Shown: piece by piece, positions 50,190 to 55,601 of the stretch
Layout of the letters: each line of letters begins with the position of its first letter
Position numbering within the stretch: the stretch's first letter is position 1
Origin: an uncultured Candidatus Saccharibacteria bacterium
GTDB taxonomy: Bacteria; Patescibacteriota; Saccharimonadia; Saccharimonadales; Saccharimonadaceae
Length of the DNA stretch: 64,000 nucleotides
Direction: 5' to 3'
Assembly (NCBI GenBank): GCA_963456375.1
Contig: CAUOLH010000005.1
Span: 5,912 to 69,911 of the forward strand
Notes under the pieces: model-generated
What the model was told of the DNA's origin: nothing
Seen by the model: the letters and a program-made list of their open reading frames with translations, nothing else
Database searches by the model: none
Program-made: the position numbers and the translations under genes

Positions 50190-53100
50190 ATGGATTTTCA
50201 CACTCGCTACGCCAAACTGAACGCCAATCAGCGCCAGGCAGTTGACTACATTCACGGCTCGCTCCTAGTGATCGCCGGGCCGGGCACGGGCAAGACCGAG
50301 CTGCTGAGCATGCGCACCGCCCAGATTCTGCGCCAAACCGACACGCTGCCGGATAGTATTTTGTGCCTGACGTTTACCGAGAGCGGTGCTGCCAACATGC
50401 GCCAGCGCCTGCGCCAGATTATCGGCGAGGATGCGTATAAAATCGCCATTCACACCTTTCACAGCTTCGGCATGGAGATTATCAATCAGCACCGGGAATA
50501 TTTTTTTCACGGCGCTGATAGCCAGCCGGCGGACGAGCTGACGCAGCACCAAATCGTGACGGGGATCCTGGAGGGGCTTGATTGGCGTAATCCGCTGAGC
50601 GTTAAAAACAACGGTAAATTCGTCTACACCAGCGAGCTGATCCGAGTCATTTCCGAGTTCAAGCAGAGCGGCCTCACGCCGGCGGAACTGCGGGCGATTA
50701 CGGCGGATAATCAGCGCGCTATCGCCGACATTACCGCTGACATCCAGCAAGTGTTTGCGAACAAAATTTCTAAAAAAACCATCGAGTTATTTGCGCCGCT
50801 GGCAGAGAACATTGCCAAGAGAGTCGGCGAGGGAAATTCTGCGAAAACCCGCGGAGGAGGCACTACAGAGCTTTCTAAAAATGCTGCCAATTCAGCACTG
50901 CATCACGCCGAACCGTCCGCCAATCTACCGTCCTCCATCACCCCGTACGCTCAGGTTCTGGCGCTCAGTATCGCCCACGCCACCCAAGAAGCGATCGACA
51001 CCAACTCCACCAAACCGCTAACCGCCTGGAAAAACAAATGGTGCGAAAAGAACGCCGCTGGTGAATTCGTCCTGAAGGATTTTACCGCCAGCGAGAAACT
51101 ATCCGCCGCCATTGACGTCTACGAAGCTTACGGCAACGTGCTGGCCGAGCGCTCGCTATTTGACTACGACGATATGATTTTGTCCGTCATTCAAGCCTGC
51201 GAAGCCCACCCGGAACTGCGCGCCAACCTACAAGAGCAATATCAATTCATCATGGTCGACGAGTTTCAGGATACCAACTTGGCGCAGTTGCGGCTGCTGT
51301 TTAATCTGACTGACGATGAGGACAATCCCAACATCATGGCGGTCGGCGACGACGACCAGGCGATTTTCAGCTTTCAAGGCGCGGACGTTGGCAATATTCA
51401 GCGCTTCCGCCAGCACTATCACGACCCGAGAATCATCGTGCTGACGGACAATTACCGCTCGGCGGCCGACATCCTGACGGCGGCGCGCGGGGTGATTACC
51501 CAAGGGACGGATCGCCTGGAGAATACCATTGACGGCTTGTCAAAGCAATTGACCGCGCACGCGTCTGGTAGCGGCGCGCAGGTTGAAATCCAGGAATTTA
51601 CCTCGGTAAGCGAGGAGCGGGCAGGAGTGGCTCAGCAAATTGCCGAGCTGATCAAATTCGGCGAAAACCCAGCGCACATCACCGTCATCGCCCGCCATCA
51701 CAAGGAGCTGATTGAGCTGCTGCCATACCTGTACCGCCAGAATCTGGCTGTCAATTACGAGCGGCACGACGATATTTTAGAGCAAGACATCATTCAGGCG
51801 CTGGACAAGCTAGCGCGGGTCGTCGTGGCGATTCATCAGAATAATCTCGATACCGCCAACAGTCTGCTGCCAGAGGTTATCGCTCATCCGGCATTCGGCT
51901 TTTCGGCGCTGGACATCTGGCAGCTCAGCCTCCACGCTTATAAAAATCGGCAGCTGTGGCTGGAGAGCATGCTGGCGAACAGCACCTTTCAGCCGTTTGG
52001 CGAGTGGCTACTAGAGCGGGCGAAGGACGTACCGAATCTGCCGCTGGAGGAGCAGTTGGACAAGTTGTTGGGGCTGGAAGCCGGAACTATCCCTATCGAC
52101 TCCTCTTTTCGCGCCGGGCGTCTGGGGACGCTCGGGCTGCAATCGCTGTACGGAGTCGATAGGGATAGTTCCGGCACTCACTCTGGCAGGGAATTCTTGC
52201 AATCAGCCGGCGAAGAGCCTTTGCTGGGACTCCGTACAGCGATTGCAGCCCGAGCGTCCCCAGACGCCCGGCGCGAAAAGAGGAGTCCTAGTAAAGGCTC
52301 TTCGCTTAATTCTCTCGCCACCCACTACTTCTCGCCAGAAGCCCTCGCTCAAAACCCCGATGCCTACCTGACCACGCTCGAGAGCCTGCGCACGCTGCGC
52401 CAAAAATTACGCGACCGCGCTACCGACGAAATCCCGACGCTGGCAGACTTTTTAGAGTTCATCGACCTACACCGCTCGACCAAAACCCGCCTGACACACA
52501 TCCGCCCCCAGGCCAGCACCCTCGGCGGCGCCATCAACCTGATGACCGCCCACAAATCCAAGGGCCTAGAGTTCCCGCATGTCTTCGTCATCGGGGCAAT
52601 CGACAGCGCCTGGGGCGAGAAAGTCCGCTCGCGCTCGCGGCTGATTCGCTATCCCGCCAACCTCCAACTCCAGCCCGCCGGCGCCAGCTACGACGAGCGA
52701 CTACGGCTATTTTTCGTAGCGATGACCCGCGCCAAAACCACCTTGACCATGACCTATTCCCAGACCAACGACGCCGGCAGCGACATCATGATCGCCAGCT
52801 TCCTGACCGACCACAAGCCAACGATTATCCCCGCCGCCGATACGCCCGCGGCGCAACTGACCGTGGCGCACACCGACTGGAGCACGCGGCTGAGCGCGCC
52901 GATTACCGCGGATCTCAAGGATGTGCTGGCGCCGACATTCGAAACCTACAAACTTTCCATTACGCATCTCAATAATTTCCTCGACGTCTCGCGTGGCGGA
53001 CCGCAGAACTTTTTGTTGAATAATCTGCTGCGTTTTCCGTCCGCCAAAAGCCCCGCCGCCAGCTATGGTACCGCCATTCACGCCAGTCTCCAGCAGCTGC

Positions 53101-53753
53101 ACAACCTGCTAGGCGCTGACCGCCGCCTGCCGCCTACCGAGCGCATTCTCCAATATTTCCGCACATCGCTCGAGGCCCAGCACCTGCTGTCCGACGACTT
53201 TGAACTATATATAGACAAAGGCACGGCGGCGCTGACGGCGTTTCTGGACGCCAAATCGTCCGAGTTTCATGACACCGAGCTCGCAGAACTCGATTTCGCT
53301 CACCAAGGCGTCGTCGTTGGCGGCGCCCGCCTGACCGGCAAGCTGGACGTCGCCGACATTGATAAGCATAATAAAACCATCTTCGTGACCGATTACAAGA
53401 CCGGCAAGCCGTCGCACTCCTGGAAGGGCATATCTGACTATGAAAAAATCAAGCTTCACAAATACCGCCAGCAGCTGATGTTTTATCAACTCTTGGTCAC
53501 GTCATCACGCGATTATGGCAATTTCACCTTCACCGGCGCCCGCCTGCAATTCGTCGAGCCAGATATGAAAACCGGCGACATCCTCAGCCTGGAGGACACA
53601 TTCTCTAGGGAAGAATTGGCTGAATTCGCCCGGCTGATCGGCATCGTCTGGCGGAAAATCACCACCCTGGAACTGCCGGATATTTCTGGGTATTCCGCGG
53701 ATTATAAGGGGATGGTGCAGTTTGAGGAGGATTTGTTGACAGAGGTAGCGTAG
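50190..53753 (+). CDS. UvrD/REP helicase fused to C-terminal PD-(D/E)xK nuclease (AdnB/AddA-like)
   Basis: AGPGTGKT, VDEFQD, VGDDDQAIF, NYRS, TAHKSKGLEF, FVAMTRA; GKLD...DYKTG nuclease motif. Confidence 0.95.
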   Translation: MDFHTRYAKLNANQRQAVDYIHGSLLVIAGPGTGKTELLSMRTAQILRQTDTLPDSILCLTFTESGAANMRQRLRQIIGEDAYKIAIHTFHSFGMEIINQHREYFFHGADSQPADELTQHQIVTGILEGLDWRNPLSVKNNGKFVYTSELIRVISEFKQSGLTPAELRAITADNQRAIADITADIQQVFANKISKKTIELFAPLAENIAKRVGEGNSAKTRGGGTTELSKNAANSALHHAEPSANLPSSITPYAQVLALSIAHATQEAIDTNSTKPLTAWKNKWCEKNAAGEFVLKDFTASEKLSAAIDVYEAYGNVLAERSLFDYDDMILSVIQACEAHPELRANLQEQYQFIMVDEFQDTNLAQLRLLFNLTDDEDNPNIMAVGDDDQAIFSFQGADVGNIQRFRQHYHDPRIIVLTDNYRSAADILTAARGVITQGTDRLENTIDGLSKQLTAHASGSGAQVEIQEFTSVSEERAGVAQQIAELIKFGENPAHITVIARHHKELIELLPYLYRQNLAVNYERHDDILEQDIIQALDKLARVVVAIHQNNLDTANSLLPEVIAHPAFGFSALDIWQLSLHAYKNRQLWLESMLANSTFQPFGEWLLERAKDVPNLPLEEQLDKLLGLEAGTIPIDSSFRAGRLGTLGLQSLYGVDRDSSGTHSGREFLQSAGEEPLLGLRTAIAARASPDARREKRSPSKGSSLNSLATHYFSPEALAQNPDAYLTTLESLRTLRQKLRDRATDEIPTLADFLEFIDLHRSTKTRLTHIRPQASTLGGAINLMTAHKSKGLEFPHVFVIGAIDSAWGEKVRSRSRLIRYPANLQLQPAGASYDERLRLFFVAMTRAKTTLTMTYSQTNDAGSDIMIASFLTDHKPTIIPAADTPAAQLTVAHTDWSTRLSAPITADLKDVLAPTFETYKLSITHLNNFLDVSRGGPQNFLLNNLLRFPSAKSPAASYGTAIHASLQQLHNLLGADRRLPPTERILQYFRTSLEAQHLLSDDFELYIDKGTAALTAFLDAKSSEFHDTELAELDFAHQGVVVGGARLTGKLDVADIDKHNKTIFVTDYKTGKPSHSWKGISDYEKIKLHKYRQQLMFYQLLVTSSRDYGNFTFTGARLQFVEPDMKTGDILSLEDTFSREELAEFARLIGIVWRKITTLELPDISGYSADYKGMVQFEEDLLTEVA
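52080..52175. mobile_element. 96-bp palindromic element, copy A (in frame in uvrD-like gene)
   Basis: Perfect 24-bp inverted arms 52080-52103/52152-52175 around a 48-nt loop containing the CCGGGCGTC/GACGCTCGG hairpin. Confidence 0.85.
52210..52305. mobile_element. 96-bp palindromic element, copy B (inverted relative to A)
   Basis: 24-bp arms 52210-52233/52282-52305 with 2 G-T pairs; 48-nt loop is the exact reverse complement of the copy A loop. Confidence 0.85.
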
Positions 53754-53769
53754 GCAATCTTGACAAAAA

Positions 53770-53815
53770 ATATTGACATAGCTTGCTATTATTGATATAT
53801 ATATACTTGCTTTTG
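53770..53815 (+). promoter_or_regulatory. TTGAC-N15-TGATATATATAT..GCTTTTG promoter, copy 4
   Basis: TTGACA at 53773, TGATATATATAT at 53793, GCTTTTG at 53809. Confidence 0.7.
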
Positions 53816-53955
53816 TTAACCGGAGCTGATTCTCGACAAGACGCCGCAAATGGCGTCAAGTCCTGACCATGCTTCGCACAAAAGCATGGTTCGAGAGGGG
53901 AGTTAGCTCTTTTCTACTGCCGCAACTCGCGGCGGGAAGGGGGTGAAGATCCCTT

Positions 53956-54132
53956 ATGCCTACGTGGAACGTTTCTGACCGGAACGTCGCTTTTACCAAG
54001 GTAGCCGGCGGTGAGAAGCTTTCGGACTTCGAACGCCGAAAGCTGGCTGAACTCGGCTCCCAGGCTGGAAAGCTAGGAACCGCCGCCAGAAAGGCGGTTG
54101 CCAGAGACGAGGAGCGCTTCGGTAAGCGCTAA
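53956..54132 (+). CDS. Unannotated 58-aa protein
   Basis: MPTWNVSDRNVAFTKVAGGEKLSDFERRKLAELGSQAGKLGTAARKAVARDEERFGKR; SD GGGGGTGA upstream; below the ORF-track length cutoff. Confidence 0.6.
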   Translation: MPTWNVSDRNVAFTKVAGGEKLSDFERRKLAELGSQAGKLGTAARKAVARDEERFGKR

Positions 54133-54265
54133 TCGTCTTTAGGGCAGTTTTCGTTTTGGCGGTCGGGGTTTGTGCGACCCCGAAACCGCTGACCTCGCGT
54201 CAGCAAAAGGGCGTCTGTCCGCCCCTGGCATGATTCCCCAGCCGGTAGCCCGGAAAAGAATCACG

Positions 54266-54345
54266 GGACGCGCAGGCTTGCCCCTCGAACTTCCACGACG
54301 AAGTGGTTGATCGAGGATGGACGGGTTCGATTCCCGCCGCGTCCA
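54266..54345 (+). ncRNA. tRNA-like element (acceptor stem and T arm, no canonical D arm or anticodon loop)
   Basis: GGACGCG/CGCGTCC stem plus discriminator A; CGGG-TTCGATT-CCCG T arm; CCTCGA/TCGAGG long middle arm. Confidence 0.6.
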
Positions 54346-54456
54346 CTGAGATGACACAACGATGTGTCATCTCTCACTCCTGGACTCGCGAGTTCACTCG
54401 TGGCAGTTTTTCTCAAAGACGAGATTAACTCCGAGCAGAACCGCTCGAGTCCGCCA

Positions 54457-54498
54457 CCCCTCACTCTCAATGGCGAGAGTGAGGGGATTTTCCTTTTT
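54457..54498 (+). terminator. Strong intrinsic terminator
   Basis: CCCCTCACTCTC / GAGAGTGAGGGG 12-bp perfect stem plus T-rich tail. Confidence 0.85.
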
Positions 54499-54515
54499 GT
54501 GGTAAAATAACAGAG

Positions 54516-55601
54516 ATGACATCATTTTGGGATAACCTGCCGCAGCCGTTTTTTGCTTTAGCACCGATGGAAGCCGTCACCGACGTGGTTTTTCGCCATG
54601 TCGTGAAGCAGGCGGGCACACCCGACGTGTTTTTCACCGAGTTTGCCAATGCCACGGGCTGGGTGCACGCCGGCGACAAGGCCATCGCTGGGCGACTCAT
54701 CAAAACCGACGATGAGCATCCGCTGGTCGCCCAAATCTGGGGTGGCGAGCCAGGTGATATGGAGCAATTTGCCGCTCACTGCACCAAGCTCGGCTTTGAT
54801 GGCATCGACATCAACATGGGCTGTCCCGCCAAATCCGCCATCAAAAGCGGGGGAGCGGCACTGATCCGCCGACCCGACGTGGCAGTCGCCGCCATCACCG
54901 CCGCTAAAACCGCTGAGCTACCGGTCAGTGTGAAAACCAGGCTGGGCTATTCACGCGTTGACGAGTGGAAAGAATGGCTGGGCACACTACTGGCACAGGA
55001 CCTCGCCAACCTAACCATCCACCTCCGCACCAAAAAGGAGATGAGCAAAGTCCCAGCGCATTACGAGCTCATCGACGACATCATCAAACTACGCGATGAA
55101 ATCGCCCCACAAACTCTCTTGACTATCAACGGCGATATCCGCAACCGAACCCATGGTCTAGAGCTAGTCCGTCAACATCCCGGCATCAACGGCGTCATGA
55201 TCGGGCGGGGGATTTTTAGCGATCCGTTTTGCTTTGTCGGAAGCAAGGTGAGCGAAGCATCTTCTGATGAGAAGACTGTGGATTGTTCGCGAATAGCGGA
55301 CAATCCAGCCGAACGCTCGCGCCAAATCTCCAGTGGAGATTTAAGCGAAAAGTGTGCTTCGAATCAGAACGGTGCGCCGTTCGCCAATGCTTTAGAACAC
55401 AAATCTGAACTAATCGCCTTATTACACTACCACCTTGATCTCTTCGACCACTACCAACCAACCCTCGGCCGCCCCTACGAAACCCTGAAACGCTTCTTCA
55501 AAATCTACATTCGCGACTTCGACGGCGCCAAAGAACTGCGCGAGAAGCTAATGCACACTAAAAACACCAGCGAAGTCCGCCAGATACTTGAAAAAATATA
55601 A
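54516..55601 (+). CDS. dus: tRNA-dihydrouridine synthase with in-frame insertion
   Basis: LAPME..TD, IDINMGCP, SVKTRLG, IH.RT, NGDI, MIGRG. Confidence 0.96.
   Translation: MTSFWDNLPQPFFALAPMEAVTDVVFRHVVKQAGTPDVFFTEFANATGWVHAGDKAIAGRLIKTDDEHPLVAQIWGGEPGDMEQFAAHCTKLGFDGIDINMGCPAKSAIKSGGAALIRRPDVAVAAITAAKTAELPVSVKTRLGYSRVDEWKEWLGTLLAQDLANLTIHLRTKKEMSKVPAHYELIDDIIKLRDEIAPQTLLTINGDIRNRTHGLELVRQHPGINGVMIGRGIFSDPFCFVGSKVSEASSDEKTVDCSRIADNPAERSRQISSGDLSEKCASNQNGAPFANALEHKSELIALLHYHLDLFDHYQPTLGRPYETLKRFFKIYIRDFDGAKELREKLMHTKNTSEVRQILEKI
55253..55382. repeat. Multi-hairpin in-frame insertion in dus
   Basis: CGAAGCA/TGCTTCG (55253/55361) enclosing hairpins 55279-55307 and 55324-55342; third hairpin 55367-55382. 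Confidence 0.65.

Follow-up and report, generated by a model that had tools for sequence, protein, structure and literature searches.

What is a tRNA-like fold without a D arm or an anticodon loop doing between two housekeeping-type genes of Nanosynbacter (Candidatus Saccharibacteria), a tiny bacterium that lives as a parasite in the mouth? The fold lies in the window, by which we mean the whole stretch of 64,000 nucleotides analysed here (GCA_963456375.1, contig CAUOLH010000005.1, positions 5,912–69,911), in a 762-nt gap separating a UvrD-like helicase gene from a dus gene. The original prediction, made from the sequence, was of a tRNA mimic acting as a processing signal or decoy released from a larger transcript.

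A tRNA-like fold that is neither tRNA nor tmRNA

The element has the acceptor (54266–54272 paired with 54338–54344 and followed by A54345, as read from the sequence and by folding), the short D region (54273–54282, 10 nt), the middle arm (54283–54316, with 6 bp, an internal loop, 4 bp and a 6-nt loop) and the T loop (54326–54332) that were first described, and it likewise has A3–U70 rather than G3.U70 at pair 3–70 and a CTG tail with CCA absent. Only the T arm requires some correction, as the loop is canonical but the stem is imperfect, with four pairs and an A.C mismatch (54321/54337) at a position which is A–U in six of the seven distinct versions of this 80-nt type. The domain folds with z = -3.71, with none of 200 shuffled sequences equally stable, and a genome-wide scan for the acceptor-plus-T-arm motif returned 19 matches, these being 18 ARAGORN tRNAs and the element itself, compared to 0 matches in each of five shuffled genomes.

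The suspicion that this might after all be an ordinary tRNA can be dropped, as ARAGORN does not call it and, with Rfam at gathering level, finds only a tRNA-Gln elsewhere in the window; membership of the tRNA family (RF00005) was also rejected because the D arm and 7-nt anticodon loop are absent, the tail is CTG and no CCA-adding enzyme was found. A permissive Rfam search gave a sub-threshold tmRNA match alone (RF00023, 19.1 bits against a gathering score of 47) which lacks the mRNA-like domain, with ~300 model positions missing. We rejected tmRNA identity because of this score and because there is no mRNA-like domain with a tag frame and pseudoknots inside the element, and alanylation of the tmRNA kind is not to be expected of an A3–U70 acceptor without CCA. 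A tmRNA with a deleted middle was dismissed as the genome has a full tmRNA elsewhere and longer relatives of the element hold two tags rather than a full tmRNA, and a derived RNase P RNA was dismissed as a full type A RNase P RNA is found on contig C21. The possibility raised earlier that the 3' half duplicates a resident tRNA or ssrA end, as an att-site remnant would, does not hold either: no exact match elsewhere in the genome exceeds 17 nt, the length shared with the T arm of a tRNA-Leu, which stops short of the acceptor strand, and the 3' end of the resident tmRNA is different. The tRNA-like fold is real, and it is not a tRNA, a tmRNA or an att remnant.

The tRNA-like domain lies within a transcript-like unit

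The gap contains a series of features running from a promoter-like site to an intrinsic terminator (Table 1), and this layout together with the fold supports the earlier suggestion of a tRNA mimic within a larger transcript-like unit, though a small ORF in the unit had been missed. We refer to the unit as a cassette and to the tRNA-like domain as its tag.

Table 1. Features of the cassette and its flanking genes (window coordinates).
Feature	Position	Strand	Basis or remarks
UvrD/PcrA-like helicase gene (upstream flank)	50190..53753	+	NCBIfam matches below equivalog cut-offs
Promoter-like site (TTGACA, TG, TATA-rich -10)	53773..53802	+	By eye
5' stem with two inner hairpins	53822..53910	+	Folding; inner part exchanged among relatives
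Short hairpin, then strong Shine-Dalgarno site	53919..53955	+	Sequence and folding
58-aa basic ORF P0001, predicted microprotein, probably helical	53956..54132	+	Translation
Three junction hairpins after the ORF	54158..54224	+	Folding; recur with substitutions in relatives
H-type pseudoknot	54225..54263	+	Loop 54231–54236 pairs with 54258–54263 after an A run
tRNA-like domain	54266..54345	+	7-bp acceptor, 10-nt D region, long middle arm, T arm, A73; CTG after
Spacer hairpin after the tRNA-like domain	54348..54373	+	Folding
Conserved 3' rod-shaped domain	54382..54452	+	Consensus of versions; model R1
Intrinsic terminator, 12-bp stem and T-rich tail	54457..54495	+	Terminator prediction
tRNA dihydrouridine synthase (Dus)-family gene (downstream flank)	54516..55601	+	NCBIfam matches below equivalog cut-offs

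The promoter-like arrangement is found again in relatives, as well as at three other loci of the same genome with small ORFs; a consensus promoter scanner made no call at this site. With limits taken from the promoter-like site and the terminator, the RNA probably starts near 53808–53810 and the apparent transcript is ~690 nt long (about 53808 to 54495), the fold of the whole 688 nt having z = -8.68 against 20 shuffles. Three runs that are only guessed to be RNA gave four short contigs which lie in 53810–54531 and leave the flanking genes untouched save for 16 nt of dus, which as evidence of expression is too thin to count. The outer 5' stem is kept in most relatives, with one subgroup having a different 5' domain, and the Shine-Dalgarno site is folded within its own hairpin (53937–53955). 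The pseudoknot ends 2 nt 5' of the tRNA-like domain, and relatives have different structured sequence, or a second tRNA-like domain, in place of the spacer hairpin. The rod is the most sequence-conserved part of the unit (its consensus, from 29 of 57 distinct versions, has 23 pairs, five of them with changes on both sides), and a search with model R1 recovered a single clear copy from this genome, with further copies in one sister genus. Pairing between the 5' and 3' ends of the Nanosynbacter transcript was considered and rejected, as the 3' bases pair inside the rod instead.

Some further observations concern the surroundings of the cassette. Three units with the same promoter type lie outside the window (G000 C3:4364, C3:7887 and C8:15822), each with a 5' hairpin, strong ribosome site, GC3-rich ORF of 63–84 aa and structured 3' end, and with the tRNA-like domain absent by the acceptor-plus-T-arm scan. 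Within the window, a promoter-like stretch at about 37225 is 94% identical to that of the cassette over 35 nt, with a 149-aa ORF (GC3 0.78) nearby at about 36290. The dus gene has an in-frame insertion of ~30 codons compared to the copy at locus L218 (361 vs 328 aa; window about 55220–55400) resembling a repeat at four other places in the genome, possibly a palindromic repeat within coding sequence.

Processing enzymes available to the cell

The genome (932 kb, 97.85% complete) has an RNase P RNA (261.8 bits) and an RnpA protein gene. The L15 region of this RNA is reduced and without the usual GGU (L040 1501–1850), although CCA is encoded by all 35 of the 35 tRNA genes detected by ARAGORN. No CCA-adding enzyme (PF01743) was found in the genome, with a single weak match among 41 genomes of the genus, and no RNase Z was found in it or, above the cut-off, in any of 41 genomes of the family. 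Of RNase P, RNase Z and the CCA-adding enzyme, it appears from gene content that only RNase P is available to the cell. Because the other two were not found, the release by RNase Z and addition of CCA envisaged in the original prediction are left without support, and the free RNA of ~80 nt with a CCA end that it anticipated is unlikely; nor is the parallel drawn there with bacterial Y RNAs borne out, as no Ro60/TROVE gene was found in this genome. An SmpB gene is located ~16 kb from the element on the same contig. We note that the resident tmRNA (G000 C17:11825–12224, L032; 75.6 bits in Rfam) is not among the 35 ARAGORN calls, and that the assembly yielded neither a 16S nor any tRNA for Ile, Phe or Tyr.

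Conservation and replacement in the tag

DNA searches matched the unit in 30 of 36 genomes of the same genus and in none of 24 genomes from other families. An exact 21-nt rod pattern was found in 68 genome records, 67 of which are titled Saccharibacteria and several Nanosynbacter, with the one other record (L097) set aside as a chance match. Among the carriers of the cassette are isolates with complete genomes, including one (L116) with the same 80-nt type of tag. Of 99 same-genus loci, 90 could be aligned with the A-rich motif preceding the tag as anchor, and these provided 56 distinct versions, with some genomes perhaps counted twice; the nine unanchored loci included two that were truncated, three having a tag with a variant spacer, three with a 51-nt tag and no pseudoknot, and one without a tag (L102). 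The same two housekeeping-type genes flank 88 of the 90 loci, and no integrase was seen in the fetched flanks examined. At four loci (L024, L025, L026 and L029), ~1.1 kb with an additional gene, which by eye we take to be helix-turn-helix and Fic-like, lies between the cassette terminator and dus.

Of the 56 distinct versions, 53 have a fully paired acceptor and 44 have all 12 stacked acceptor/T pairs, while the tags range from 55 to 127 nt. In an alignment of 26 chosen versions, which are related by descent so that changes on both sides of a pair do not amount to a probability, the acceptor is 99.4% paired with five of seven pairs changed on both sides and the T stem is 95.4% paired with two of five so changed; overall pairing is 88% in the true register and 27–56% in slid registers. 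The hairpin helix defined for this alignment (columns 17–34) was out of register (51.9% paired) and provides evidence neither way. The middle part itself falls into nine classes, each conserved internally, and may keep the whole D arm while a long hairpin replaces the anticodon loop, or be D-less, anticodon-like or minimal; some over-long middle arms end in 7-nt loops that look like the anticodon loops of Leu, Cys, Trp and Arg tRNAs, and one subgroup has tandem tags, two per unit. It follows that the absence of a D arm and anticodon loop, though correctly described for the window copy, is a property of only one allele of an exchangeable slot. Taken together, these comparisons show an acceptor/T stack of 12 bp which has been selectively retained while the D and anticodon part was replaced.

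C74 is near-invariant (55 of 56 versions), and an account of the R-C-Y tail by pairing with L15 has to face the missing GGU in this RNase P RNA. CCA is encoded by six of the 56 versions and G3.U70 is found in 14, none of which has CCA; 13 combine G3.U70 with A73. A further sample, of 108 metagenome matches, was anchored on the rod. The 80 that passed the rod filter held 51 distinct tags, 36 of them new; every one has an R-C-Y tail and 14 encode CCA, and again G3.U70 and CCA were never combined. The script found 19 of these loci to be tagless, though the 11 with long flanks proved by eye to have variant or damaged tags. The best Rfam match amongst relatives was tmRNA, with up to 33.9 bits.

A pseudoknot partner of at least 5 bp is present in an upstream hairpin loop in 52 of 55 distinct leaders, ending 0–3 nt before +1, compared to a mean of 3.5 and maximum of 8 with shuffled tails; in this count the downstream strand served as the anchor and the partner strand did not. 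Neither structure is universal: tag and pseudoknot are both absent from L102, the pseudoknot is absent from the shortest tags (L076, L123, L236 and L291), the T arm is lost in L249, the T stem is broken in L018 and L248, and there is an extra base in the acceptor of L014, L223, L234 and L274.

The microprotein slot and exchange of modules

In relatives the ORF slot is occupied by 52 distinct proteins of 46–60 aa, in about ten families which are helical or CxxC-rich, with many carrying CxxC pairs (it should be noted that the first ORF search used patterns biased towards G at one ribosome-site position). The window protein P0001 has no Pfam or PHROG family and no usable match in the ESM Atlas. 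Its family alignment (A1) takes in 164 clusters in the protein database and was found in none of 300 other genomes of the order that were sampled. Searches of Pfam and PHROGs with 22 of the 52 versions gave zinc-finger matches only, all below cut-off.

On a tree of the flanks (a 300-nt marker, with 68 rows from 88 loci coming mostly from assembled bins in which chimeras are possible) the tag classes need 23 changes compared to a minimum of eight. The 80-nt class spans two deep clades of this tree and is paired with three ORF classes, and L117 appears chimera-like, crossed in the T arm. This suggests that ORF and tag have been exchanged independently among strains by recombination, and a fixed chromosomal site with a swapped microprotein and tRNA mimic looks like a locus under diversifying selection.

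Inserts at the same site in sister genera

Amongst 55 genomes of the family having the helicase, we fetched 30 loci, 28 of these from other genera. At three loci dus directly follows the helicase with no insert, and at most of the other sister-genus loci the insert is GC-rich and structured, its small ORFs being similar in kind. Of the 28 loci, 11 held between them 12 recognisable tRNA-like elements; CCA is encoded by none of these elements, and in most the anticodon arm is abnormal. At 13 of the 28 the cargo is enclosed by a long stem. Rfam searches of 19 loci gave 11 tRNA-family matches and one weak tmRNA match. The tag in these genera is often upstream of the ORF. The rod model was matched in two genomes of one further genus among 149, and in one of the two, at locus L218, the order by eye matches that of the cassette, with promoter, 5' stem, ribosome site, zinc-finger ORF, a D-less tag which encodes CCA, rod and terminator. 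Two other loci (L187 and L189) have two or three tandem cassettes, each with a promoter-like site, enclosing stem and terminator. Sister genera hold comparable cargo at the same site, and their enclosing-stem cassettes may be either homologous or merely site-sharing. A 15-nt 3' motif had matches in 42 of 301 genomes of the order, of which the 30 loci inspected were chance matches, and the sister-genus stem motif was found in two of 251. Three viral scans produced 17 matches without a T loop upstream by pattern, then 0 and 0.

A candidate RNase P-type processing tag

We favour reading the element, with a rough probability of 0.45, as an RNase P-type processing tag in a modular microprotein transcript. 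The unit would be transcribed from about 53808 to 54495, and RNase P would measure from the T loop and cut 5' of G54266 to leave an upstream piece (leader, ORF and hairpins) ending in the pseudoknot, which would block 3' decay. The downstream piece (tRNA-like domain, spacer and 3' rod) would stay joined, and would be uncharged because the cell appears to be without RNase Z and the CCA enzyme. The tag may be read as a cut signal because the conserved acceptor/T stack is what RNase P measures and the pseudoknot ends so close to +1, and the retention of only that part of the tag which RNase P reads argues for processing, as do the presence of RNase P RNA and protein genes, the failure to find RNase Z and the CCA enzyme, and the rarity of encoded CCA. 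In one review, RNase P is described as measuring the acceptor/T stack, with the T loop needed and the D loop seemingly dispensable, and both MALAT1 and tmRNA are named as substrates (PMC4919913). As in mascRNA and t-elements, a conserved acceptor/T stack lies within a longer transcript unit, here with predicted limits, and it is the genes for 3' release by RNase Z and CCA addition that were not found.

Several features sit less comfortably with processing. The protein subunit of RNase P binds the unpaired leader, and the pseudoknot leaves ~2 unpaired leader bases, which may hinder the enzyme; the tag and pseudoknot are also not obligatory, being lost or damaged at some loci. A pure cut site would leave unexplained the several unrelated and well-paired middle arms, some of which end in anticodon-like loops of 7 nt, and the maintenance of G3.U70, as well as the near-invariant C74, since the RNase P RNA is without the usual GGU in L15. 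In sister genera where the tag is upstream of the ORF, it cannot make the 3' end of that mRNA.

Some of this would be accounted for if the tag were never cut and served instead as a tRNA decoy or docking domain in an intact folded RNA, which is the main rival and one we regard as possible, if doubtful. Its partner would be a recogniser of tRNA shape (an anticodon nuclease, synthetase, the L1 stalk of the ribosome or a modifying enzyme), with the variety of tags resulting from an arms race, and such a role would suit the internally conserved middle-part classes, the anticodon-like loops on over-long arms, the tandem tags, the versions having G3.U70 and A73 without CCA, and the stability of the whole 688-nt fold; the linker of GOLLD also carries tRNAs (10.1101/2024.12.08.627333). 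Yet the window version has neither an anticodon-like loop nor G3.U70, versions of 51–55 nt retain the stack alone, and no partner gene travels with a unit whose flanks are so constant. The same variety could also mean that captured tRNA or tmRNA remnants now serve chiefly as joints for DNA recombination in a hypervariable island, as the changes in tag class on the flank tree, the spread of the 80-nt class over clades and ORF classes, the crossing in L117 and the lost or damaged tags might suggest; we consider this decidedly unlikely, as changes on both sides keep the long-range acceptor pairing, which DNA homology alone would not, no integrase was seen in the fetched flanks examined, and identity with resident tRNA or tmRNA ends goes no further than a generic T arm. 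There is hardly any credence to be given to a minimal tmRNA-like domain working with SmpB in ribosome rescue: tmRNA is the best Rfam match here and in relatives, the D stem and anticodon loop are replaced as in the tRNA-like domain of tmRNA, and an SmpB gene is present, but a full tmRNA is found elsewhere, the window copy is without G3.U70 and CCA which never occur together in other versions, there is no tag frame inside the domain, and other alleles have a full D arm.

A further alternative places the function outside the cell, with the RNA exported to the actinobacterium that serves as attached host. Its ORF would be translated there on host ribosomes, and host enzymes would mature the tag or bind it. 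Most bacteria have a C at the 16S position flanking the anti-Shine-Dalgarno sequence where all five of the family genomes checked (L205–L209) have a U, and the base opposite is G in 38 of the 39 distinct cassette ribosome sites covering the position, compared to 15 of 35 strong sites of ordinary genes. In addition, GC3 of the ORF in a low-GC subgroup is 0.54–0.74 compared to 0.44–0.53 in flanking genes, and the ribosome site is masked by a hairpin in many versions. However, G forms a wobble pair with the cell's own U anyway, and the preference could be explained by hairpin structure (the G is often the first base of a GNRA-like loop in the masking hairpin), by shared descent of the sites or by the biased search patterns, each alone. 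The window ORF, with a GC3 of 0.66, equals its flanks (0.68–0.70), the genome's own 16S is not in the assembly, and we know of no route of RNA export, so that export to the host is a long shot. Translation by the host alone, for want of an anti-Shine-Dalgarno sequence in the epibiont, was rejected outright as the 16S tail has one and ordinary genes use Shine-Dalgarno sites; in PMC9297842 its loss is reported for Parcubacteria alone.

Comparison with known systems

Returning to the processing tag, we take mascRNA and menRNA, along with the plant mitochondrial t-elements, to be the closest known kind. In MALAT1 and NEAT1 a tRNA-like fold is embedded in a longer RNA immediately downstream of a compact, A-rich tertiary element, and the cut by RNase P makes the 3' end of the upstream RNA (PMC4919913, PMC8457004). 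The cassette differs in being bacterial, in having an upstream RNA which encodes a microprotein and ends in a pseudoknot instead of a triple helix, in belonging to a genome with no detected RNase Z or CCA enzyme to finish the tag, and in having a polymorphic and exchanged tag and ORF. Like the tRNA-like domain of tmRNA (RF00023), the tag has an acceptor and T arm, no D stem and a long helix replacing the anticodon arm; unlike tmRNA, the window allele has no mRNA-like domain, G3.U70 or CCA, scores far below gathering and coexists with a separate true tmRNA.

The cassette also resembles GOLLD and ROOL in being several hundred nucleotides long and highly folded with a conserved 3' part and variable remainder, and tRNAs are sometimes found in the GOLLD linker (10.1101/2024.12.08.627333). 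It is nonetheless chromosomal, single-copy here and not phage-borne in the three viral scans, and has an ORF with a ribosome site and tRNA-like parts that cannot decode; membership of these families was rejected because there was no family-model match in Rfam, an ORF is present and there is no phage context. Bacterial Y RNAs (YrlA) and RNase P-processed phage RNAs such as P4 CI and P1 C4 are, as the tag may be, tRNA-like small RNAs cut from longer bacterial transcripts. The tag differs from them in that neither a Ro60/TROVE gene in this 97.85% complete genome nor an Rfam match was found, on which grounds we also rejected it as a bacterial Y RNA. No description of such a cassette was found in Rfam families or in the literature searched, which covered papers readable without subscription. 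The tag would probably act like a known kind of element, and the novelty appears to lie in a cassette with two independently exchanged slots.

Significance

The cassette is invisible to standard annotation, having a short ORF and a sub-threshold RNA, and as it is carried by isolates with complete genomes, including the 80-nt type in L116, it is directly testable. If the processing-tag reading is true, it would be a bacterial counterpart of the MALAT1/mascRNA arrangement needing RNase P alone. How Saccharibacteria exploit their bacterial hosts is largely an open question on which the cassette may bear, and a bolder suggestion, which we think unlikely, is that this family runs polymorphic RNA cassettes, used against or inside the parasitised bacterial host, in which interchangeable microprotein ORFs and non-decoding tRNA mimics would serve as tRNA-enzyme decoys or host-ribosome mRNAs. 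If that were true, the cassettes would constitute an RNA-based interface between epibiont and host.
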